From positions 198,646 through 262,645 of the forward strand of contig JAVZZP010000001.1 in the NCBI GenBank assembly GCA_038885615.1: a DNA stretch of 64,000 nucleotides. Reading direction: 5' to 3'. Positions 1-43,671 of this stretch are shown here, one piece after another (the stretch's first letter is position 1; each line of letters opens with the position of its first letter). The notes below the pieces were generated by a model that worked only from the letters and a program-made list of their open reading frames with translations, ran no database searches and was not told the DNA's origin. Both the position numbers and the translations under genes were made by a program. This DNA comes from Candidatus Pacearchaeota archaeon (GTDB taxonomy: Archaea; Nanobdellota; Nanobdellia; Pacearchaeales; GW2011-AR1).

Positions 1-666
1 GCTTCTGCCAAATAATCTCTTGAAGAAGCATCCAATTTTACTCCAAAATCCTTGTGGTTTTGGTGTTGGATTTGGTCTTTGATTGTTTACAATCGGCTTA
101 TCAAATGTTTCAATTTTATTTGGTTGACCATTATTATACTCAGAAGTTTGTTTTGATTTGTAAACAATTAATTTTCCATCTGAAAATCCTGCAATTGAAT
201 ATTCAATTGTTTCTTTTATTAGAGGGTTGCTTTCATCAACATAACCTCCATAAGGTTCTACATCTTCTAACAAAAGAGTTAAATCAGAAGGAGAATAAAC
301 ATCCATATAAACAGGATTACCTGCATTATCTCTTCCTCCAGTTACAACTTTCTTAGATTCTAATTTTAAATTTTTGAGGTCAAGAGTATTAAATTTTTCT
401 TTTGTTGTCCAATAAACATTCAATGAATTAAATTTATATCCTTTTTCTAAGCAAGCACCATTTTGTATTTGATATGCTTCATAGGTATCAACCATAGGTC
501 CAGTATAATAACCTATTAAAACCACATCTGAAAATTCATTTAGATTTACAAATTTAACACATCTGTCTAATGGATGAGAATTTTCAGGAATAACATCAGC
601 AGAAACTAAAAAAGCCAAACTAACCAAAGTTAGTAAAGCGATTGGCAAAATTATTTTTTTATTCAT
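1..666 (-). CDS. secreted hypothetical protein (N-terminal signal peptide), 3' partial at window edge
   Basis: Minus-strand ORF starts at ATG 664-666 and runs open in frame to base 1 (checked by hand, no stops). N-terminus MNKKIILPIALLTLVSLAFLVSA looks like a signal peptide. It is not in the ORF track because it runs off the window. Confidence 0.5.
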   Translation of the reverse strand, partial: MNKKIILPIALLTLVSLAFLVSADVIPENSHPLDRCVKFVNLNEFSDVVLIGYYTGPMVDTYEAYQIQNGACLEKGYKFNSLNVYWTTKEKFNTLDLKNLKLESKKVVTGGRDNAGNPVYMDVYSPSDLTLLLEDVEPYGGYVDESNPLIKETIEYSIAGFSDGKLIVYKSKQTSEYNNGQPNKIETFDKPIVNNQRPNPTPKPQGFWSKIGCFFKRLFGRS

Positions 667-699
667 CTTAACATATAAATTCAAAACATATTTATAAAT

Positions 700-990
700 C
701 TTTGTTTTTCGTTTCGTCTTTTTCACACGAGCAAAGCGAGTGCGAGGTGGGGCTTCTGACTTTTCTCGTCGGTAAATTGAAAATCCTATTGGGAAGAACC
801 TATGCGATTTAACGATGTTTTTTCGAACGAAGTGAGAAAAAATATGGGTCGAAGGTGCAACCTCGGAGCCGTTAAATTGTTGTTATGTGCCCTGAGCGAT
901 TAGCGAAGGTTGATTTTTAGTGCAACGTTCCGCAGGAAAAAATCGAAGTTTGCCCCCGAGCGTTTTTTAGTTAGTCGTCAGGAAATCCCA
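700..990. other. GC-rich (~50% GC) noncoding island downstream of copA; candidate structured RNA or att-like element
   Basis: The copA to secreted-protein intergenic region is far more GC-rich than the ~30% GC context. It contains gtgcaac and cgaagg sub-repeats and a 14-nt repeat (704-717) shared with the island at 5029-5042. Confidence 0.3.
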
Positions 991-997
991 ACTATTT

Positions 998-2911
998 TTA
1001 TAATTTCTTTCTATATTTTTTCATTAATAGAGAATTTGAAACAACAGAAACAGAACTAAAAGCCATAGCTATTCCTGCAATAATTGGGTTAAGTAAAAAT
1101 CCTGTGAATGGATATAACAAACCAGCAGCTATAGGTATGCCCATAGAATTGTAAAAAAATGCCCAGAAAAGATTTTGTTTAATCTTTTTTATAGTATAAT
1201 TACTTAAATCTATTGCAGTTACCACATCTCTTAAATCATTTTTAACCAACACAATTTGCCCAGTTTCAAGCGCAACATCTGTTCCTGCACCTATTGCAAT
1301 ACCTATATCTGCCCTAGCAAGTGCCGGAGCATCATTGATACCATCACCAACCATCGCTACGATCTTACCCTTTTTCTGTAACTTACTAATCTCTTTTTCT
1401 TTATCTTCAGGCAGAACTTCAGCTAAAACATAATCTATACCAAGCTGCCTTGCAATCGCATTTGCTGTCCTTTTATTATCACCAGTAATCATAATTACTT
1501 CTTTACCCATTTTATGTAGTTTTTGAACAGCCTCTTTAGAAAACTCTTTTAAAGTATCTGCAACGGCAATCAGACCAACAACTTTTCTATTAACTGCTAA
1601 AATCATAACTGTTTTCCCTTCATTTTCTAAATTACTTATTTTTTCTTCAAATGTTTCAATTTTTATTTTATGCTTTTTCATTAAATTTCTATTACCAAAA
1701 AGAATCTCGTTTTTATTGTACTTCGCGATGATTCCATGTCCCGGGATTGCTTTAAAGAATTTAGCATCTGGAATTTTCATTTTTTCTTCTCTGGCTTTGT
1801 TAATAATGGAGTCTGCAAGAGGATGTTCTGATTTTTTTTCCGAAATAGCAGCATATTTTAGAATCTCTTTTTTATCTAATCTACCTACTGCTAAAATATC
1901 TGTAACCACTGGTTTTCCTTCTGTTAAAGTTCCTGTTTTATCAAAAACAATAGTTGTTAATTTATGCGCGTTTTCTAAAGCTTCTGCACCTTTAATTAAT
2001 ATTCCATTTTCTGCGCCTTTCCCTGTCCCAACCATTATTGCCGTTGGGGTTGCAAGACCCAAAGCACAAGGACATGCTATAATTAAAACTGCTATGAAAA
2101 TGCTCAGCGAAAAAACAAAACTTTCTCCTAAAATAAAATACCAAAATATAAAAGCTAAAATTGCAATACTAATAACCGCTGGGACAAAATAGCTACTCAC
2201 TTTATCTGCTAATCTTTGGATTGGTGCTTTGCTTCCTTGAGCTTCCTCTACTAATTTTATTATTTGATTAAGAGCAGTATCTTTTCCAACCTTAGTTGCT
2301 TTGAATTTGAATGAACCATGTTTATTGATTGTTGCCCCTATTACTGTATCCCCTTTCTTTTTTTCTATAGGCATACTTTCCCCTGTTATCATAGATTCAT
2401 CAACAGAAGAAATACCATCTATAACTATTCCATCAACAGGTATTTTTTGTCCTGGTTTTACTACGATAATATCCCCAACAATAACTTCATTAATTGGAAT
2501 TTGCACTTCTTTACCATCTCTGATAACAATCGCATTCTTCGGTTGTAAGCCCATTAGTTTTTTTATGGCTTCTGATGCCTTCCCTTTTGTTACAGCTTCA
2601 AGCCATTTTCCAAGAATAATAAATGTTATTATTATGGAAGAAGTCTCAAAATAAACATTATCTCCTAGAATATTAGGGAAGAGTACAACAAAAAAGCTGT
2701 AAAAGTAAGCAGCAGATGTTCCTATAGCTATCAAAGTGTCCATGTTTGCAGTTTTTGCTTTCAACGCTAAAAATGCTCCTCTATAGAATCTGTATCCAAC
2801 AATAAACTGGATAGGAGTTGCAAGCAGAAGGAGTATTATATTTTTGTATGGAATTTCTATATTCAACCATTCAAATGGCATTGCAATTAAAAAGATTGGG
2901 ATTGATAACAA
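998..2911 (-). CDS. copA: copper-translocating P1B-type ATPase CopA (ATPase body), in frame with the upstream HMA ORF across a TAG
   Basis: Motifs CPC ([13 protein letters not shown]), DKTGT (FDKTGTLT), MITGDN and [10 protein letters not shown]. No HMA domain and no ATG start. The listed start is TTG, preceded by 39 open codons up to TAG 3029-3031. Confidence 0.9.
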
Positions 2912-3028
2912 TAAAGAAAAAAGAAATGAAGATTTTAATGTTTTAATATCTTTTTCTCTAACTTCCTTTTCCCTATCAACAGCTTTTCCTGCTTCGTGAT
3001 CAACTTCTTTAATAACCTTATATCCTAA

Positions 3029-3214
3029 CTATTCAATAACATTATTTATCTCATTTTCATTAACCAAAGCTTCATTAAATTCAACAGTTGCTTTTTCTGT
3101 TGCGAAGTTAACATTTGCTTTAATAATTCCATCTAATTTTTTGAGGTTTGATTCTATCTTTTGTGCGCAAGAGGCACAATGCATGCCTGAGATTGGGATT
3201 ATTATTTTTTTCAT
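3029..3214 (-). CDS. copZ: heavy-metal-associated (HMA) copper chaperone CopZ-like domain ORF
   Basis: GMHCASC metal-binding motif. SD-like ggaggt lies upstream of ATG at 3214. Terminates with TAG 3029-3031 in the same frame as copA. Confidence 0.8.
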   Translation of the reverse strand: MKKIIIPISGMHCASCAQKIESNLKKLDGIIKANVNFATEKATVEFNEALVNENEINNVIE

Positions 3215-3328
3215 TTTTTTACCTCCTAAAACCACAACCACATCCTCCACCACTCCCCCACAACTTCCACTACCTCAGCAGCAACCTCCACCAGTAATCG
3301 GTTGTTCATTAGTAGTTTGTTGGCTGCT

Positions 3329-3982
3329 TTATTTAATTGAAGAATCATCTAAGACTGTTGCTTTGTAAGTGTTGAAAACATCCAATGAAAGTATTTCCTG
3401 CTTTGATGTTTTTGTGGAATCATAACTTATTGTGAATATGTTTGGGAATTTAAATTCTGTGTTTGTAATACCATCAATTTTATTCAGCTCTCCAGTTATT
3501 AGCGGAGCATGACCCGGACAAGGAATTGCAACTTGAATTGTTAAGGTAGATTGCGAGCCTTGGACCCCTACAAATGCGCCAGTTACTGTTGGATTTGAGA
3601 TTAAATTTGTTGCATAAGGAAAGATTATCATAAATAAAAACAAATTAGTCAAGATTGTTGTACCGTAAAGTATTGTTAGATATTTCCATTTTCTTTTAAT
3701 TCCTGAAATCGATAGTATTTCATTTCTTTTTAGATATATAATTGCTGAAATTGTAGCAAAAACAAAAGATAATCCTATCAAGATGTAAAAGAAATAGGGG
3801 TTAAGCAACAATGGCTTAAAGAAAGTTGTCATAGCTGTTACGCCTAAAACAGTAAAGACAATAAAAGCTATGCAACCGAAGTGTGGGATTAAACCATAAA
3901 CTATTCCTGCCAAAAATCCCTTTCCTTCTTTCTTATCAACTTTCTTACAACAATCTGGTTTTTCGTTATTTGAATTATCCAT
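3329..3982 (-). CDS. polytopic membrane protein with Cys motifs (DCCKK, PCPGH), function unknown, in cop operon
   Basis: Several hydrophobic helices; Cys-rich N- and C-terminal segments. Co-oriented between copZ and the thioredoxin-like gene. Confidence 0.35.
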   Translation of the reverse strand: MDNSNNEKPDCCKKVDKKEGKGFLAGIVYGLIPHFGCIAFIVFTVLGVTAMTTFFKPLLLNPYFFYILIGLSFVFATISAIIYLKRNEILSISGIKRKWKYLTILYGTTILTNLFLFMIIFPYATNLISNPTVTGAFVGVQGSQSTLTIQVAIPCPGHAPLITGELNKIDGITNTEFKFPNIFTISYDSTKTSKQEILSLDVFNTYKATVLDDSSIK

Positions 3983-4031
3983 AAAAAACTAACAACTGAA
4001 ACAGCTTATTAATCTTTGTATGAAACTAGTT

Positions 4032-4406
4032 TCACTGCAAATTTTTCTTAATGGCTTCTTTAATTATTTCCTTTGGCGGATAAGGATATTTTTTACCCTT
4101 ATAGAAATAAATTCTACATCCACAACTACATTCTTGTTTCACAAATGGGGTTGCTCTTTTGGTGTGTTCAGCAAGTTCTTCACATGGTAAACATCTACTC
4201 TTGCTAATTTCTTCTTGAATATCCTTTCCATTAATTCTGATAGTTGGTGAACCACTAAAATTATATTTATTTGCTTTTTTATCTGAATCGATCAAAATCT
4301 CTTTAACATCAGCTTTTACTTTAAGTTCTCTCAAACTTTTTCTAATCAATTCTTTAGTCTTTAGACACCAAGGACAATCCAAAATGTATAAAAGTTCAAT
4401 TTTCAT
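4032..4406 (-). CDS. thioredoxin-fold protein (CPWC active-site motif) with Cys-rich C-terminus
   Basis: LDCPWC motif in glutaredoxin/thioredoxin-like context; C-terminal CxCGC. Confidence 0.5.
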   Translation of the reverse strand: MKIELLYILDCPWCLKTKELIRKSLRELKVKADVKEILIDSDKKANKYNFSGSPTIRINGKDIQEEISKSRCLPCEELAEHTKRATPFVKQECSCGCRIYFYKGKKYPYPPKEIIKEAIKKNLQ

Positions 4407-4409
4407 AGT

Positions 4410-4922
4410 TTATCCCTTTTGTTTTAATATAACAACATTAGTCATACCTCGTCTTTTTCTTTCAACTAATCCCTTGCCTTCTAATTTATCAAGAATTCTT
4501 GTAATTTTAACTTTAGTGAATTTTGTTTTATCTACTAAATCTGATTGAAAAATAGTTCCTTCAGATTCAATTATTTTCTCAAAAACTTGTTTTTCATCAT
4601 TATCAAGCTTGCTTAATATTTTTTGATAATGTTCTTTTGCGATTTTCTTTGGTTCAATTTGTTGTTTTATTGCTTTGACTTTAGTTATTATTTTCTCTTC
4701 TTTCCCGAAGAAAATTAGATATAATCCAACTATTACAATAAAAACCATTATTCCTATGCTTACATTAGTCTGGAAATTTATAGAACCCCACATGGGGCAA
4801 GTAGGACCGTGTTCACACGATTTATTAACAATATTGGTCATTGCTCTATTGAAGGAAAATATTATAAAACCCATTAATGCAACTATTCCTAAAACCATAA
4901 ATCCTGCAATTCTATTCTTCAT
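4410..4922 (-). CDS. membrane-anchored winged-helix transcriptional regulator (2 TM flanking a CEHGPTCPMW motif, C-terminal wHTH)
   Basis: N-terminal TM, Cys/His/Met-rich loop, second TM, then a MarR/ArsR-like wHTH (KITRILDKLEGKGLVERKRRG). First gene of the minus-strand cop operon. Confidence 0.5.
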   Translation of the reverse strand: MKNRIAGFMVLGIVALMGFIIFSFNRAMTNIVNKSCEHGPTCPMWGSINFQTNVSIGIMVFIVIVGLYLIFFGKEEKIITKVKAIKQQIEPKKIAKEHYQKILSKLDNDEKQVFEKIIESEGTIFQSDLVDKTKFTKVKITRILDKLEGKGLVERKRRGMTNVVILKQKG

Positions 4923-4984
4923 ATTTATAATGTAATTGTTACTCTTTAAAAAGTTTCTTTTTTGTTTTACTATTATTCTGTCAA

Positions 4985-5065
4985 GGATAGGCTATGTATA
5001 CTGAAGGGACTCTGCGGGGCTTCCGTTCGTTTTTCGTTTCGTAGCGAGGGGGCAAATTGCAACTA
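4985..5065. other. GC-rich noncoding island between cop operon and integrase; contains a direct repeat of the 704-717 sequence
   Basis: gcggggcttccgttcgtttttcgtttcgtagcgagggggcaaattgc. The 14-mer gtttttcgtttcgt at 5029-5042 is identical to 704-717. ggggcttc is also shared. Confidence 0.35.
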
Positions 5066-5133
5066 ACACCTATTTCACTAATAAAAAATAAGGGAAATAA
5101 TAATATTTAAATAGTTTTTGGATAAAAATAGAT

Positions 5134-5929
5134 ATGGAAGATTTACTTAAAAATAAAGAGGAAATAATTCTAAAACTTAAAGAAGAATTAAAATTGAGAA
5201 AATACTCTCCAAGAACGATAGATAAATATACTTACATAATCTGCAAGTTCCTAAATTCTGGTAAAAGCATAAGAGAATTTTTGCTCGCTTATTCAGACAA
5301 GAGCAGATCTAGTGCAAGAACAGTATATTTTGCACTTCAGTTTTTATATAAGAATATCCTTAATATACCTTTTAAAGAAAAAGTACCTTTAATTAAAAGA
5401 AAAATCACATTACCTAATGTAATTAACAAAAAAGAAGTAACATCGATGATTAGTTCAACAAAAAATATGCAACATAGATTAATTTTAATGTTCTTATATT
5501 ATTCTGGACTAAGACTCCATGAACTTTTAAATTTAAAATGGGAAAATCTCGATTTTGAAAGAAAAACAATCAATTTAAAAATAGCTAAAAGAAGAACATC
5601 AGAGAACTATATTTTTGCATGAAAAGATAATAGAATTCCTAAAAATAGCTGGAATTAAAAAACAAGGATTAATTTTTATGTCTAATAGAAATAAAAAATA
5701 TTCAGAGGAATCTATTCAACAGATAGTTAAAGAAGCTGCAAAAAGAACAAACATTAAAAAAAGAGTCACTCCTCATACTTTAAGACATAGTTTCGCTACT
5801 CACCTACTGGAAGCAGGAGCAGATATAAGATATATTCAACAGCTTCTAGGTCACAAAAACCTACAAACGACACAAATCTATACTCATGTAGCAAATAGAG
5901 ATATAAATAAATTTGCAAATTTGCTTTAA
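5134..5929 (+). pseudogene. tyrosine recombinase/integrase (XerC/D family) disrupted by a frameshift in a TTTTT run near 5612-5616
   Basis: Two overlapping ORFs (5134-5622 and 5615-5929). Together they give an R...HxxR...Y recombinase ([27 protein letters not shown]). Removing one T restores ...[11 protein letters not shown]..., which aligns with the intact paralog at 42405-43286. Confidence 0.8.
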
Positions 5930-5951
5930 TAAAGTAAAAATAACTCAAAAA

Positions 5952-6536
5952 TCAAACTCCTTGCCTATCTAACTCATTATGTATCAAAACAAAAACATGC
6001 GAAGCAAAAAGTGTTTTGGGAGAAACAGAAATTTTGTCTATTCTTTTTAATAAATGCCTTTTTTCATAAGGAAAACCTTCGTGATCGCCGATCAAAAAAA
6101 CCTCGTTTCCTCTAAATTGAATTTCTCTTATATCCTGGCCTTTTTTATCCAACAAAAAAATGTTTTTTCCTTGAGAATCGAGCTCTTCAATCAGCTCATT
6201 AAGTGATTTTTTTTCAACAAAAACTCCGGGAAAAGCACTTACAATTTTTCCTTTCTCTTTAGGGCATTTGAACAAAATTCTTTTAATCAAACCTGCAACA
6301 TCTTTTTTCGAAAGAGGCAAGTCTTGATGATATTCAATAATTATATGAACCGGAGGGTTTGGTTTTCCCTCAAAAACCAGATGTAATTTTGTGTCTTTTC
6401 TCATATCATGCGAAAGAAAAAAACAGGAAATAATAACATTAATTGCAATATCCATTCTTCCTGCCGCCATTAAATCATTTTTTATCAAAGCGCCAGAAGT
6501 GACTGCTGATTTTGAGTAATAAATAAATTCTCTCAT
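5952..6536 (-). CDS. trmY: tRNA (pseudouridine54-N1)-methyltransferase TrmY (SPOUT class)
   Basis: MREFI...GRMD...FFLSHD...PNPPV...IGDHEGF...SLSP..L.A.H..V.IHNELD matches the Mja_1640-type TrmY family. True start is the ATG at 6536; the longer listed ORF is an upstream extension. Confidence 0.7.
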   Translation of the reverse strand: MREFIYYSKSAVTSGALIKNDLMAAGRMDIAINVIISCFFLSHDMRKDTKLHLVFEGKPNPPVHIIIEYHQDLPLSKKDVAGLIKRILFKCPKEKGKIVSAFPGVFVEKKSLNELIEELDSQGKNIFLLDKKGQDIREIQFRGNEVFLIGDHEGFPYEKRHLLKRIDKISVSPKTLFASHVFVLIHNELDRQGV

Positions 6537-8592: not shown

Positions 8593-10092
8593 TCAGCACC
8601 TTTCAACGCTGCTTGCTTTTTTAACTTCTTCTATTGCAGGCTTATTTTTTCCAAAGAACTCAATTGCTTCTGCTAACTCTTTATGGGTTTTCGCATATTC
8701 TTCAATAGAAATTCCTTTTTGATAGGCTTCGCATGCCTGGACTAAGGCTGTTGCGCCCACTCTCGTTCCCTTAGGATGGGCATGAACTCCTGCCCCCATT
8801 GTAGTAATGAAATCGACATTCCCCATAACTTCTATGAAAGGTTTAAGCTTTGTCGGATTTAAGCCGCCTGAAATTATAGGGCAGCATTTTTTAATTCCTC
8901 GCCAAGAATCATCTTCAAGAATAACATGGTGGGCTAAATCTTCGTGAACAATTTTTATTAAGTCCTTGTCGTTTTCAGGAATTTTTGTCCATTCTTGTTC
9001 AAAAAAATGACCTTTTGATTTAAAATATTGAATTCCGTGAGCTGCAACAATATCTTCTTCTGGGGAACCTTTCATTTTTCCTACTCCTGCTGTACCAGTG
9101 TGTATTCCGGAAGCTCCTGCAAGACGAGCAAACTTAGATAAAACTAGAACACTAAATCCAATAGGATTTTCAGGCCGAGTAAATCCGCCGTGACCTGCTC
9201 TGTGAAAATGTATAAAAACATCGGGATATCTTCTTCTTAATGTTTGGACTGCCATCCATCCTGCTGTGATTCCATCGATTAAAAAAGCATAACTTCCTTT
9301 TTCAAAACCAGCATTTCTTATTAGTTCGCAACGCCTTATCATTTCATCAAAATCTGCTGCCGAGACATTAAAAGAATGAACTTTTTTTCTTCCAGTTTCT
9401 TTTACTGCTTTGTCCATCGCTTTTTTAACATATTGAACCATTTTATCATAAGGACAAAAATCTTGATCTGCTTGCGGTTCATCGTTTTTTACAAAATCTC
9501 CGCCCCCAACCCAGAAGTCATAGCAAACCTCGGCATATTCAGAAGCAGTTAAACCCATTTTTGGTTTGATTATTGTTCCTAAAATTGGTCTTCCATAAAC
9601 ATTAAGATATTTTCTCATATCATCTAGAGTATAAGAAGGTCCGTCGTATTGTTCTAACATCGCAGGAGGAAACCAAACATCTAACAATTTTAAGGCAGAA
9701 ACTTCTTTTATTCCTAGAATATTTCCAACGAGATAAGTCAAAATATTTTGTACATTTCCTTTTCTATCGAATAATCTCCAAGGATAAGCAATCCAGACGA
9801 GATTTCTTTTTAAGTCAATTTGATAAACAAGAGCGTTTAATTCTCTTGAAAAAGGAGTTTCTGTATTTACTTTGAAATTCGTTCCTGTTGAACTCTCAGC
9901 TGCAACTTCTGCTGCTGCTTGCAAAATATTAAGTTTTCCACCAGGAATCAAATGAAAAACAGCAAGAAGATAATTTCCATTTCTAGGATCTTTTAAGTCC
10001 AAATTTACATACGCCTGTTGATGAGGATTTAAACTAGCAAGAATTTTTTTTATTTGCGCAGTTTGAGATTTATTAGAATTTTTTTTAACCAT
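8593..10092 (-). CDS. rbcL: ribulose-1,5-bisphosphate carboxylase large subunit, form II/III-like
   Basis: GGGDFVKNDE with the carbamylated Lys and Mg ligands; HRAGHGG; SGGLNP...GAGVHAHPKG...GA.A..QA. At 499 aa it is consistent with II/III-type enzymes carrying an insertion. Confidence 0.9.
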   Translation of the reverse strand: MVKKNSNKSQTAQIKKILASLNPHQQAYVNLDLKDPRNGNYLLAVFHLIPGGKLNILQAAAEVAAESSTGTNFKVNTETPFSRELNALVYQIDLKRNLVWIAYPWRLFDRKGNVQNILTYLVGNILGIKEVSALKLLDVWFPPAMLEQYDGPSYTLDDMRKYLNVYGRPILGTIIKPKMGLTASEYAEVCYDFWVGGGDFVKNDEPQADQDFCPYDKMVQYVKKAMDKAVKETGRKKVHSFNVSAADFDEMIRRCELIRNAGFEKGSYAFLIDGITAGWMAVQTLRRRYPDVFIHFHRAGHGGFTRPENPIGFSVLVLSKFARLAGASGIHTGTAGVGKMKGSPEEDIVAAHGIQYFKSKGHFFEQEWTKIPENDKDLIKIVHEDLAHHVILEDDSWRGIKKCCPIISGGLNPTKLKPFIEVMGNVDFITTMGAGVHAHPKGTRVGATALVQACEAYQKGISIEEYAKTHKELAEAIEFFGKNKPAIEEVKKASSVERC

Positions 10093-38498: not shown

Positions 38499-38630
38499 GA
38501 GGGGATGCCGGAGTGGCCAAACGGGCAGGACTTAAGAAGCTCTCTTTAAAAAGAGACCTTGGAGAGAAACCAAGGAAATTAAGATATCCTGTGGCTTTTG
38601 CCTGCGGGGGTTCGAATCCTCCTCCCCTCA
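38499..38630 (+). tRNA. tRNA-Leu (anticodon UAA), class II, with 49-nt intron at the canonical 37/38 position (about 38537-38585)
   Basis: Acceptor GAGGGGA/UCCCCUC, 3-bp D-stem, anticodon arm CAGGA-CUUAAG[intron]A-UCCUG, long variable arm UGGCUUUUGCCUGC, T-arm GGGGG-UUCGAAU-CCUCC, discriminator A. The intron contains the hairpin ccttgg-agagaaa-ccaagg. Confidence 0.8.
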
Positions 38631-41896: not shown

Positions 41897-42475
41897 ATGA
41901 GTGAAAATCTTTGGTGTGGTGCAGACGATTCAAATCATGCTGGAACAACAAAAGGCGAGTTTATTGTTGTAACTTTTTCTACACTAAAAGAAGATAGTAT
42001 TGTGAAACCATTTCCAAATCACCGCCAAAGAGATGAAACAAATTTATGGTTAGAAAACCAACGAAGAGATTTCAGATTTACTCTTTTAACAAGAGAAGAT
42101 TATAGGCATCGCGGAGATAATGTACCAAAAATTGCCCCTTTTATTGTCGCTTATTATTTAAGAGAAAAAAAAGAAGCTTATAAACAAGTTAACTTATACT
42201 TAGATGGATGGTTAAATGGAGAGACAAAAAGGTTTATTCGAGAAATTATATCTGCGGAAGGAATAGAAAGAGTTGTTGTAGATAACTTTACAAAAAAAGG
42301 AAAAAATAAATTTCAAAAAAGGCATTTTTGTCCTGAACTGGTTTATAGAGCCGATAATTTAGCACATATGTTATTTAGATATGATGGACCAATAGAAGAA
42401 TTACTTAATGACTCTCGTCTTGTTCCTTTTGAATCTCTGCAGAAAATTGCTCACGAAAAAGGATATTGTCTATAG
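41897..42475 (+). CDS. hypothetical protein (WCGADDSNHAG motif; possible C-terminal Rx5H HEPN-like motif)
   Basis: No confident family match. RADNLAH near the C-terminus fits Rx4-6H. Convergently overlaps the recombinase gene by about 70 nt. Confidence 0.25.
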   Translation: MSENLWCGADDSNHAGTTKGEFIVVTFSTLKEDSIVKPFPNHRQRDETNLWLENQRRDFRFTLLTREDYRHRGDNVPKIAPFIVAYYLREKKEAYKQVNLYLDGWLNGETKRFIREIISAEGIERVVVDNFTKKGKNKFQKRHFCPELVYRADNLAHMLFRYDGPIEELLNDSRLVPFESLQKIAHEKGYCL

Positions 42476-43286
42476 GGCTTTTTATTTTTCTTAATTCTTC
42501 GTTTGAAACATGGGTGTAGATTTGAGTTGTTGATAAATTTGTATGGCCTAAAAGTTCTTGAATTTTTCTTATATCTATGCCAGATTCAAGAAGATGGGTA
42601 GCAAAAGAATGTCTTAAAGTATGTGGGTGAACTTCTTTATCTATTCCGGCTTTTTTAGCCGCAGATTGAACTATTTTTTGGATGTTTCTTTCAGAAAGAG
42701 GTTTATCTTTTGAAGAAAAAAGATATTCTTGATTTTCATTTTTTCTTTTTTCTACAATCTCCTTTAAATCCTCTAAAAGAGAATCCGGGATATTAAAAAT
42801 TCTATCTTTTTTTCCTTTTCCTTGACGAATAAAACCAATTTTCTCATTAAAATTTATATCTTCAATTTTAAGATGCGTCAGTTCTGAAACTCTCATTCCA
42901 CAGGCATAAAGAAGAGATACCATTAATCTTGACTTTTTATTTTTTATAACTAAAATAAGACGAGAGACTTCTTCCTTTGTTAAAACGGCAGGTATCTTTT
43001 TTTCTCTTTTTGGTCTTTTTATACCTTCTGTTATATCTTTTTTCAATATTGAGGAAAAAGAAAATTTTATTGCTGCTAAAAAAGATATTATTGAAATTGC
43101 TGCCTTGTCTGAAAGTTTTTCAACAATATACTTCTTGACGTCATCTGAATCTATTTTTTCCAAGGGTTTATTAGTATAGTCTAGAAAAAGCCTGTTTTTT
43201 ATAAGATAATTTTTTATAGTGTGCTCCGAGTTCTTTGAAATTTTTAACTCTATTTCCAGTTTTTTTAAAAATTCTTCTTTTTCCAT
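42405..43286 (-). CDS. tyrosine recombinase XerC/D (XerA-like), intact
   Basis: GMRVSEL (Arg), [15 protein letters not shown] (HxxR) and IYTHV (Tyr). 293 aa; paralog of the frameshifted copy at 5134-5929. Confidence 0.85.
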   Translation of the reverse strand: MEKEEFLKKLEIELKISKNSEHTIKNYLIKNRLFLDYTNKPLEKIDSDDVKKYIVEKLSDKAAISIISFLAAIKFSFSSILKKDITEGIKRPKREKKIPAVLTKEEVSRLILVIKNKKSRLMVSLLYACGMRVSELTHLKIEDINFNEKIGFIRQGKGKKDRIFNIPDSLLEDLKEIVEKRKNENQEYLFSSKDKPLSERNIQKIVQSAAKKAGIDKEVHPHTLRHSFATHLLESGIDIRKIQELLGHTNLSTTQIYTHVSNEELRKIKSPIDNILFREQFSAEIQKEQDESH

Positions 43287-43322
43287 AACAAAGATTATGC
43301 GAAGTTATTTAAATAAGTTTTT

Positions 43323-43671
43323 ATGTTGAATTTTATGGAAAAAATAAGCTGGCAAGATTTTGAGAAAGTTGAGTTAAGGGTTGGAACAATATTAAATGCT
43401 GAAGATTTCCCGGAAGCAAGAAAAGCTGCCTACAAACTAACTATTGATTTAGGCTATTTCGGAATAAAAAAATCTAGCGCTCAAATTACTAAACTGTATA
43501 AAAAAGAAGAACTAGTCGGAAAACAAGTTTTTATGTGTCACCAACTTTCCACCAAAACAAATTGCAAATTTTGTTTCTGAAGTTTTAGTAACAGGTTTTG
43601 TCCTTGATAATGGCGAAGTGGTCTTGGCTGTACCTGAAAGAAAAATCCCTAATGGAACAAAGTTATTATAG
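43323..43671 (+). pseudogene. tRNA-binding domain protein (Trbp111/CsaA, MetRS C-terminal-like) with a frameshift in an AAAA run
   Basis: [12 protein letters not shown]...LVGK in frame 1, then [49 protein letters not shown] in the +1 frame. The join lies at ggaaaacaag (about 43515-43524). Confidence 0.65.

Follow-up and report, generated by a model that had tools for sequence, protein, structure and literature searches.

A candidate integron-like gene-cassette array carrying a copper-export operon in a Pacearchaeota genome

A copper-export (cop) operon of Candidatus Pacearchaeota, a member of the DPANN archaea, appears to lie in a gene cassette of an integron-like array. The operon is found on the minus strand of the 64-kb stretch of a metagenome-assembled genome (MAG) analyzed here (the window; G+C content (GC) 29.0%), between two GC-rich noncoding islands, A (700-997) and B (4990-5068), and beside a broken tyrosine recombinase gene. 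We put at roughly 70% the probability that the region represents, within an integron-like array of gene cassettes, the end next to the integrase; on this reading, the window copy is a decaying instance of a cassette system that is widespread in DPANN archaea. An earlier note on this DNA had proposed that the operon is a site-specifically integrated cassette, now in decay, with a 14-nt direct repeat in the two islands as its att-like ends. The placement of the operon as a cassette beside a tyrosine recombinase gene by site-specific recombination is borne out by the homology at the junctions, which breaks at AAC boxes, and the decay by a nonsense codon in copA together with the frameshift in the integrase gene. 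The part assigned to the 14-nt repeat had to be given up, as described below.

The element family and its two copies in the window

Two exact copies of the 14-mer GTTTTTCGTTTCGT, at 704-717 and 5029-5042, were observed in the earlier note; the window has no third, and the direct repeat around them extends to 16 matches out of 17 (701-717 versus 5026-5042). By an arithmetic estimate that takes composition as uniform, the chance expectation of an exact 14-mer shared by two intergenic stretches of this length (331 and 211 nt) is ~3e-4. The second shared word, GGGGCTTC, is likewise present in both islands, at 749 and 5016, its sole sites within 1-6000. The islands had been described as about 50% GC, which is right for 4985-5065 (50.6%) and slightly too high for 700-990 (43.6%, with a local peak of 50% at 844-962); together they are the sole GC-rich noncoding DNA in the window besides four tRNA genes.

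Plain blastn of the islands against the first 85 related loci (designated by L numbers) returned AT-rich chance matches only. The GC-rich intergenic region bounding a different insertion by trmY in L001 has two 10-11-mers in common with island A, and the 11-mer GAACGAAGTGA led to noncoding stretches of ~300 nt in L027, L029, L079 and L025. Conserved among these stretches is the 26-mer TTTGGGAAAATCCYGCAAGGATTTTC, which is present in at least 120 metagenome contigs. A viral origin was considered and rejected, as the 26-mer is in no IMG/VR viral contig. A family hidden Markov model (HMM) built from 68 full copies identified, among the loci collected, 232 copies in 126 loci of Pacearchaeota and Woesearchaeota genomes and of metagenomes; the array loci had been gathered, among the matches listed, through this one conserved 26-mer.

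The element is ~300 nt long and reads, on the plus strand, as a U module, a (T/G)AAC(A) box, an H module, a TGTTA box and a D module. U is GC-rich and ~95 nt long. H (~90-150 nt) is a long imperfect hairpin around two to four small hairpins (three or four in canonical copies), and the canonical form is TAACA-TC-GGGCTTAAAC ... GTTTAAGCCC-TGTTA. D (~100 nt) carries GCA-triloop hairpins and, after them, GCGCGC, a run of T and a T/A palindrome. Treated as single-stranded DNA (ssDNA), the canonical hairpin takes the drawn fold (z = -5.8). RNAalifold on a MAFFT alignment recovered the central hairpin only, because the copies fall into several interior classes, and we therefore counted pairs on a hand-drawn structure over 95 copies. 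In this structure 87.8% of the cells pair, versus 38-61% with the partners slid by 1-3 columns, and 23 pairs show double-sided changes, amounting to 183 cells versus 70±6 in shuffles. The closing stem alternates among copies (GGGCTTAAAC/GTTTAAGCCC, GCGATTAAAG/CTTTAATCGC or TGGTTAAAG/CTTTAACTG), the AAC and GTT triplets pair in 80-81 of the 95 copies, the distal box has the consensus GTTAAGT, and there is a 2-nt bulge and an L stem that covaries (GC/CG, CG/AU). G·T cells exceed A·C cells in the paired columns by 290 to 82, and the plus strand is therefore taken to be the folding strand.

The copies form ordered arrays. All copies are co-oriented in 59 of 59 multi-copy loci, with up to eight copies in one locus (L162), and this co-orientation holds irrespective of the orientation of the flanking genes. 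The median spacing between elements is 1.14 kb and 62 of 100 inter-copy intervals hold a single open reading frame (ORF). The contents are diverse: 87 inter-element ORFs match 75 Pfam families, among them radical SAM proteins, GNAT acetyltransferases, methyltransferases, NYN proteins and a DNA methylase, and the cassettes hold mostly one accessory gene, without replication or mobility functions. In the 14 loci with both elements and an integrase gene, the integrase is always on the element strand, and it lies downstream of the last element in 13 of them. The window matches this layout, with its integrase (5134-5929) following the islands at 700-997 and 4990-5068. Ahead of every array-linked integrase gene comes a module resembling U, followed by an xAAC(A) box and a short inverted repeat; in clade 1 this repeat is a 30-bp palindrome of 11-8-11 structure, GGATATAnAAC-N8-GTTnTATATCC. 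The L125 integrase gene, too, has such a U-like module upstream, with a GAAC box and an inverted repeat.

Two further observations concern the array loci. Many element copies in L086-L205 lie within 100-200 nt of a contig end, and the elements probably break short-read metagenome assemblies. In L025 (2358-2700 and 5550-5980), one element copy directly follows a tRNA-Phe gene, and an inverted repeat of ~45 nt (2597-2640/5550-5597) flanks three cargo genes between two element copies, which suggests an inversion or a second kind of site.

Island A reads as a complete, diverged element. Its U module, U_A (700-795, plus strand), holds the 14-mer and GGGGCTTC (749-756), goes with the cassette of the secreted-protein gene to its left, and is 84-95% identical by blastn to L142 1-100, L118 11-138(-), two copies in L199, and copies in L156, L089 and L154. 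In other genomes (L142 and L118) U_A has a perfect 7-bp hairpin, CTCGCAC-N11-GTGCGAG, corresponding to 725-747 of the window, where two substitutions (TTCACAC) disrupt it. After a GAAC box (796-799) comes the hairpin module H_A (800-885), with a closing stem formed by GCGATTTAACG (804-814) and CGTTAAATTGT (870-880), two hairpins inside it (815-845 and 846-870) and, at the distal end, TGTTA (881-885); it is 75-82% identical by blastn to element copies in L107, L119 and L093. The distal module D_A (886-997) has a GCA-loop hairpin region and GCCCCCGAGCG followed by T6 (952-968), and abuts the copA stop codon. Its blastn identity is 83% to L184 972-1058 and 88% to ~15 other copies, and judged by its sequence it is a probable bidirectional terminator. 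With nhmmer, the family HMM matches 875-1041 (E = 2.6e-4), the sole window match below E = 0.1.

Island B, by contrast, reads as a U module and box fused to integrase-proximal DNA, so that the islands, taken as equivalent ends in the earlier note, are a complete ~300-nt element and a truncated one. U_B (4990-5062, plus strand), which appears to travel with the cop operon, holds GGGGCTTC (5016-5023) and the 14-mer (5029-5042) and is 94% identical to L093 7158-7220, 82% to L207 and 74% to L206. It ends at a CTAACA box (5063-5068). Past this box the window continues into AT-rich DNA, an inverted repeat and the integrase gene, whereas L093 continues into a normal hairpin module. The inverted repeat, TATTTCACTAA-N7-TAAGGGAAATA (5071-5099), has arms that are 9/11 complementary (11-7-11) and an ssDNA z of -3.1; from its sequence and position it is a candidate core site, attI- or dif-like, to which the recombinase may bind.

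The comparison with other genomes also accounts for the shared 14-mer. GTTTTTCGTTTCGT is found in the U modules of L089, L118 and L142; it recurs at a fixed offset in these homologous modules, and in L089 and L142 it precedes the element core by 66-79 nt on the element strand. U_A and U_B have GGGGCTTC and AGCGAG in common, in a different order, and we therefore regard them as diverged copies of one module type. The 14-mer is shared because they are modules of the same type and is no target duplication; what the earlier note took for an att core is an internal conserved piece of the ~95-nt U module.

Junctions at the AAC box and alternative explanations

Linkage across the element was measured on 148 distinct copies anchored at the box and cut into 40-nt segments (10,878 pairs; similarity ≥85%). 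Within U, pairs similar in the distal half are similar in the proximal half in 95% of cases, and co-similarity within H is 70%. Across the box (U1 to H1), it is 7% (4/61), which equals the background H similarity of 6.3%. Individual copies behave in the same way. The similarity of U_A to every homologue stops at the AAC box, and U_A is joined to six different H modules, with the switch always at the box, which marks GAAC (796-799) as the probable crossover between the previous and the cop cassette. The similarity of U_B to L093 ends at CTAACA (5063-5068), the probable crossover between the cop cassette and the integrase-proximal site. In L027, a perfect 45-nt repeat of U plus box lies at 837 and 2469 with one gene in between, and its second copy is just upstream of the intact integrase. 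Two small, independent contigs, L206 and L207, encode a MarR protein 86-87% identical to that of the window and share its promoter region and U_B. The box is the exact point at which they begin to resemble the window, and on its far side lies the hairpin of another element instead of integrase-proximal DNA. Because these contigs carry the gene-plus-U unit beside a different partner, the unit moves as a block. These data are indirect evidence for a crossover at the conserved AAC box, where cassette ends would reassort, and we would place the real junctions of the cop cassette at the boxes at 796-799 and 5063-5068 and not at the 14-mer.

In the mechanism that we infer, the gene at the 3' end of the array, on the element strand, would supply a tyrosine recombinase of the XerA type, which would swap strands at the AAC box of a site whose plus strand folds as ssDNA, with U and D as presumed functional parts. 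The free cassette would be a circle of the order H-D-gene(s)-U-AAC, and a circle recombining with the integrase-proximal site (X-AAC-inverted repeat) would land beside the integrase. In the window, the older cassette would comprise the secreted-protein gene and U_A (1-795), with its junction at GAAC (796-799), and the newest cassette (800-5062) would consist of H_A and D_A (800-997), the cop operon (998-4922) and U_B (4990-5062). The second junction, CTAACA (5063-5068), would be followed by the inverted-repeat core site (5071-5099) and the integrase (5134-5929). Read on the opposite strand, the order would be that of an integron: integrase, proximal site, and then repeated units of an ORF and a structured site.

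Several points weigh against this model. The array loci were gathered through a single 26-mer, and the sample is therefore biased to one H type. In L125 (376-3711), the integrase is upstream of the detected elements, on the same strand. The integrase in the window is a pseudogene, 36-44% identical to other array-linked integrases, and H_A is diverged and, although its ssDNA fold has the family architecture, folds only weakly (z = -2.0). No second context was found for the unit of the copA 3' end, D_A and H_A, the closest CopA genes (91-93%, L208-L212) sit in ordinary chromosomal loci without elements, and no recombination product, whether a circle or an empty site, was observed directly. Unlike in classical integrons, the ORFs are only 59 antisense to 35 sense with respect to the element strand, and the cassettes appear to bring promoters of their own. 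Finally, a transcribed RNA would also account for the strand asymmetry and for the T-run that follows D.

The alternative that survives best, although we consider it unlikely, dispenses with a dedicated platform: the recombinase would be the host dimer resolvase XerA, the inverted repeat a dif-like site, and the cassettes Xer-exploiting mobile elements (IMEX-like) piled up in tandem. CTX, TLC and the gonococcal genetic island (GGI) accumulate at bacterial dif by exploiting Xer. The array-linked integrases of L027 and L079 pass the cutoff of the NCBIfam model XerA_Arch (228 and 239 bits; cutoff 220), and their best PDB match is P. abyssi XerA; the halves of the split window integrase score 76.7 and 114.9 bits on the same model. 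In L027, L040 and L099 the integrase gene is directly upstream of trmY, a conserved housekeeping context, and the clade-1 palindrome of 11-8-11 resembles the 11-6-11 archaeal dif (PMC2958812, PMC8371274). However, the window encodes a second, intact XerA-like recombinase (42405-43286, minus strand; 293 aa), which reaches 253 bits on the XerA model, more than the array-linked gene, and has neither an element nor an AAC-box site upstream of it. It is probably the housekeeping XerA, and could in principle act in trans on the array. The array-linked recombinase, on the other hand, is dispensable, because it is frameshifted in the window and nearly all deleted in L001, where 97 nt are left. The predominance of single accessory genes without replication or mobility functions also speaks against mobile elements of this kind, as does the location of dif in Thermococcales, where it is a single 28-bp site near the terminus and not beside xerA (PMC2958812).

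A reading of the elements as a multi-copy structured noncoding RNA, or as terminators or stabilisers resembling repetitive extragenic palindromic sequences or bacterial interspersed mosaic elements (REP/BIME), with the arrays and the integrase link as secondary features, we hold to be slightly less probable again. In archaeal genomes that are rich in AT, an island of high GC is typically an RNA gene. Covariation with an excess of G·U on one strand, the GC-rich stem and T-run at the 3' end of D, found in the consensus and at 952-968 of the window, and the palindromic T/A-run, which could terminate transcription both ways, would all suit an RNA. Rfam, however, gave no match on the window islands at gathering or permissive thresholds (E up to 10), nor on four loci with canonical element copies, and a by-eye comparison found no RNase P, signal recognition particle or C/D-box signatures in the islands. 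An RNA would leave unexplained the uncoupling of U and H at a box of 3-4 nt, the truncated copies of U plus box right before integrase genes, and the strict co-orientation regardless of flanking genes. The RNA and recombination readings are mutually compatible.

The model of the earlier note, a classical integrative element with its own integrase and the 14-nt repeat as the duplicated att core, is now very improbable. An exact 14-mer does flank the operon, and a tyrosine recombinase gene is adjacent, but the integrase (5134-5929) lies outside the repeat-bounded segment (704-5042), the 14-mer sits inside conserved U modules elsewhere at a fixed offset from the element core, homology passes through it and ends 20-80 nt further on at the AAC boxes, and the two islands are unequal, one a full element and the other a U-only fragment. 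A tRNA target was also considered and rejected, as ARAGORN found no tRNA or tRNA fragment at the islands. That the islands are meaningless remnants of decayed pseudogenes or foreign DNA sharing words by chance, in line with whole-island folding that is no better than shuffles on each strand of each island (the H sub-module alone folds), is next to impossible in view of their 75-95% identity to elements in many independent contigs and of HMM, covariation and linkage statistics that contradict chance.

Genes and history of the copper locus

The left end of the window holds the 5' part of a secreted or hypothetical protein gene (1-666, minus strand), which runs off the window; its product has a signal-peptide-like N-terminus and no Pfam match. 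According to the cassette model, this gene is the cargo of the previous, older cassette. Upstream of it is a putative AT-rich promoter (667-699, minus strand) with a TATA-like TTTATAAAT at 691-699, recognized from its sequence, and the start of the gene, the promoter region and U_A are kept together in L118, L156 and L199a.

The cop operon was described in the earlier note as five genes. The genes are as named there, except that copZ and copA are one broken gene, which leaves four. An HMA ORF (3029-3253) and a P-type ATPase ORF (998-3028), both on the minus strand, are in the same frame and split by a single TAG (3029-3031), and the whole (998-3253) matches the Pfam families HMA, E1-E2_ATPase and Hydrolase. 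All three domain types of CopA are therefore present, yet not as one intact ORF. Relatives have one fused CopA of 736-738 aa, with Gln (CAG) at the position of the TAG, and the window CopA is 88% identical to the fused 738-aa CopA of L081. The Gln in relatives and the use of TAG as an ordinary stop in this genome lead us to read the codon as a CAG-to-TAG nonsense mutation; reassignment of the stop codon was rejected, as TAG ends 6 of 42 long ORFs. The ATPase part after the TAG is without a proper start, and the NCBI annotation gives this part as a 627-aa ATPase (P0124). Upstream of copA, all on the minus strand, are genes for a Cys-rich membrane protein (3329-3982; no Pfam match, 86% identical to its equivalent in L081-L084), a DUF2703/thioredoxin-like protein identified by Pfam (4032-4406; gene order as in L081-L084) and, as the first gene of the operon, a membrane-anchored MarR/DUF7343 regulator (4410-4922; Pfam), which is 100% identical to P0001, an NCBI Pacearchaeota MAG protein. 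The AT-rich putative operon promoter (4923-4989, minus strand), predicted from sequence, is kept with marR and U_B in L206 and L207.

The array-associated XerA-like tyrosine recombinase gene (5134-5929, plus strand) is frameshifted, as the earlier note had recognized: 5134-5622 and 5615-5929 each match Phage_integrase in Pfam, and NCBIfam also matches both halves, which places the frameshift near 5590-5620.

Close relatives differ at this locus. The trmY loci closest to that of the window are from Pacearchaeota and Woesearchaeota MAGs. In L002 (trmY 82% identical), acyP and lysS come right after trmY, and there is neither integrase nor cassette. In L001, the closest relative (86% nucleotide identity over metG-trmY), the trmY-acyP interval holds the last ~97 nt of the integrase, an asparaginyl-tRNA synthetase (AsnRS)-like gene, a HIT gene and a partial element in the orientation of the window. 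From these differences, the platform with its cassettes is an insertion here, and its content turns over between close relatives. The uninterrupted junction that the earlier note proposed to look for in relatives is thus present in L002, where trmY is directly beside acyP, although the left flank of the window itself is out of view.

The cop operon is found outside cassettes too, with 85-93% protein identity, in MAGs labelled Parvarchaeota and Pacearchaeota. CopA is 88-93% identical between Pacearchaeota- and Parvarchaeota-labelled MAGs (L081-L084, L208-L212), and MAGs labelled Aenigmatarchaeota gave 73-84% in the homologue search; this likeness across labels suggests either that cop genes were exchanged recently or that the taxonomic labels are loose. 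Compositional foreignness of the cop genes, for which the earlier note proposed a check of codon usage, was rejected: codon usage and GC3 (GC at third codon positions) are ordinary for the genome. The GC of the operon is 31.6%, versus 29.0% for the window. The ordinary codon usage fits an exchange among equally AT-rich DPANN genomes.

Elsewhere in the window, a RuBisCO large-subunit-like gene (8593-10092, minus strand; 499 aa) is 74-91% identical to those of related DPANN loci, and its position relative to metG-trmY varies among relatives, therefore indicating local inversions. An Rfam tRNA match of 41.4 bits and 132 nt (38499-38630, plus strand), beside tRNA-Gly and uncalled by ARAGORN, probably represents a tRNA gene with an intron. 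Upstream of the second integrase (43300-43660, minus strand), inspection by eye suggests a stop-interrupted tRNA-binding-domain-like protein, apparently encoded on the opposite strand.

Comparison with known systems

Little is understood of how DPANN archaea, whose genomes are tiny, gain and trade accessory functions. We give even odds to the broader proposal that Pacearchaeota and Woesearchaeota carry a widespread integron-like means of gene capture, with a XerA-type recombinase devoid of the IntI domain and composite structured sites of ~300 nt, which would be either an independent invention or a surviving intermediate between Xer/dif and integrons, and would serve these small-genome symbionts as a main route for swapping accessory genes such as copper resistance. 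What defines integrons is the IntI-specific domain together with short attC sites, and their origin from Xer-like recombinases is still in question. If true, the proposal would show the integron principle at work a second time, or supply a missing link, in a platform that has the topology, strand bias and crossover position of an integron and yet a plain XerA-type enzyme and much larger sites, and the U-AAC-H sites together with the proximal inverted repeat would be concrete, testable substrates for the study of integron evolution. The cop operon, with its 85-93% protein identity across differently labelled DPANN phyla, would have been caught here inside a cassette. None of the papers searched describes such a DPANN cassette system, and a 2021 review of archaeal tyrosine recombinases makes no mention of DPANN.

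Classical integrative elements, which are bounded by att repeats, often at tRNA genes (in archaea, the SSV type), resemble the locus in having a tyrosine recombinase, accessory genes and a partial duplication at the ends. They differ in that the DPANN integrase is outside the inserted segment, which is normal for an integron-like platform, and in that the DPANN arrays have multiple consecutive cassettes, no tRNA target, and a repeat that is a site module and not the crossover core.

Xer/dif systems, with IMEX and pdif modules, resemble the arrays in having a XerA-like recombinase, a short inverted repeat beside it (in the arrays a candidate core site) and gene modules between Xer-type sites. 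Each IMEX, however, is a phage or island complete in itself, and Acinetobacter pdif modules are bounded by inversely oriented sites. In contrast to all of these, the DPANN loci have long co-oriented arrays of single genes, large structured sites and, in the window, a separate intact XerA-like gene. Compared with the 11-6-11 form of dif, the inverted repeat of the window (5071-5099) is 11-7-11 with arms 9/11 complementary, and that of clade 1 is 11-8-11, so that both spacers differ from 6.

Archaeal integrons have been described by Ghaly et al. 2022 (PMC9668308), who required canonical attC folds and IntIs with the additional domain; they report 2-4 attCs per MAG in a few Pacearchaeales and Woesearchaeales, most finds being without an adjacent integrase. 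Their systems and ours are alike in being cassette arrays of archaea, with Nanoarchaeota (Pacearchaeales and Woesearchaeales) among the hosts. A conserved 23-mer of our element is not in the supplementary files of that study that were searched.

The differences from integrons, including sedentary chromosomal ones and clusters of attC sites lacking integron integrases (CALINs), lie in the enzyme, the site and the expression of the cassettes. The array recombinase lacks the IntI-specific additional domain around patch III: residues 196-204 of the L027 integrase span residues 189-242 of VchIntIA (2a3v), leaving ~7 residues where VchIntIA has ~52. It also stays below the cutoff of the integron-integrase model TIGR02249 (206-223 bits versus 265, with the match in two stretches) while exceeding, in L027 and L079, that of XerA. 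An attC site is an imperfect hairpin of 57-141 nt with R''/R' (RYYYAAC/GTTRRRY) and L''/L' boxes and extrahelical bases (PMC9668308), and its sequence is little conserved. The DPANN sites are ~300 nt long; their H hairpin of ~90-150 nt has a conserved, multi-hairpin interior, is flanked by conserved U and D modules of ~100 nt, and has no unpaired central spacer. Integron cassettes are promoterless, mostly co-oriented and expressed from the promoter Pc, whereas both cassettes of the window have a TATA-like AT-rich region before the first gene that travels with the gene and is predicted to act as a promoter. ORF orientation is only 63% uniform in the DPANN cassettes.

There are also likenesses to integrons. 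In both, a tyrosine recombinase gene stands at one end of a series of co-oriented structured sites that separate diverse single genes, and the newest cassette would lie beside the recombinase, at a special proximal site. The DPANN site resembles attC in that AAC and GTT triplets enclose a long imperfect hairpin; its distal box, GTTAAGT, fits GTTRRRY, and it has a 2-nt bulge. The strand predicted to fold also codes for the integrase and is the complement of most cassette ORFs, and the probable crossover maps to the AAC box of this strand, as it does in integrons.

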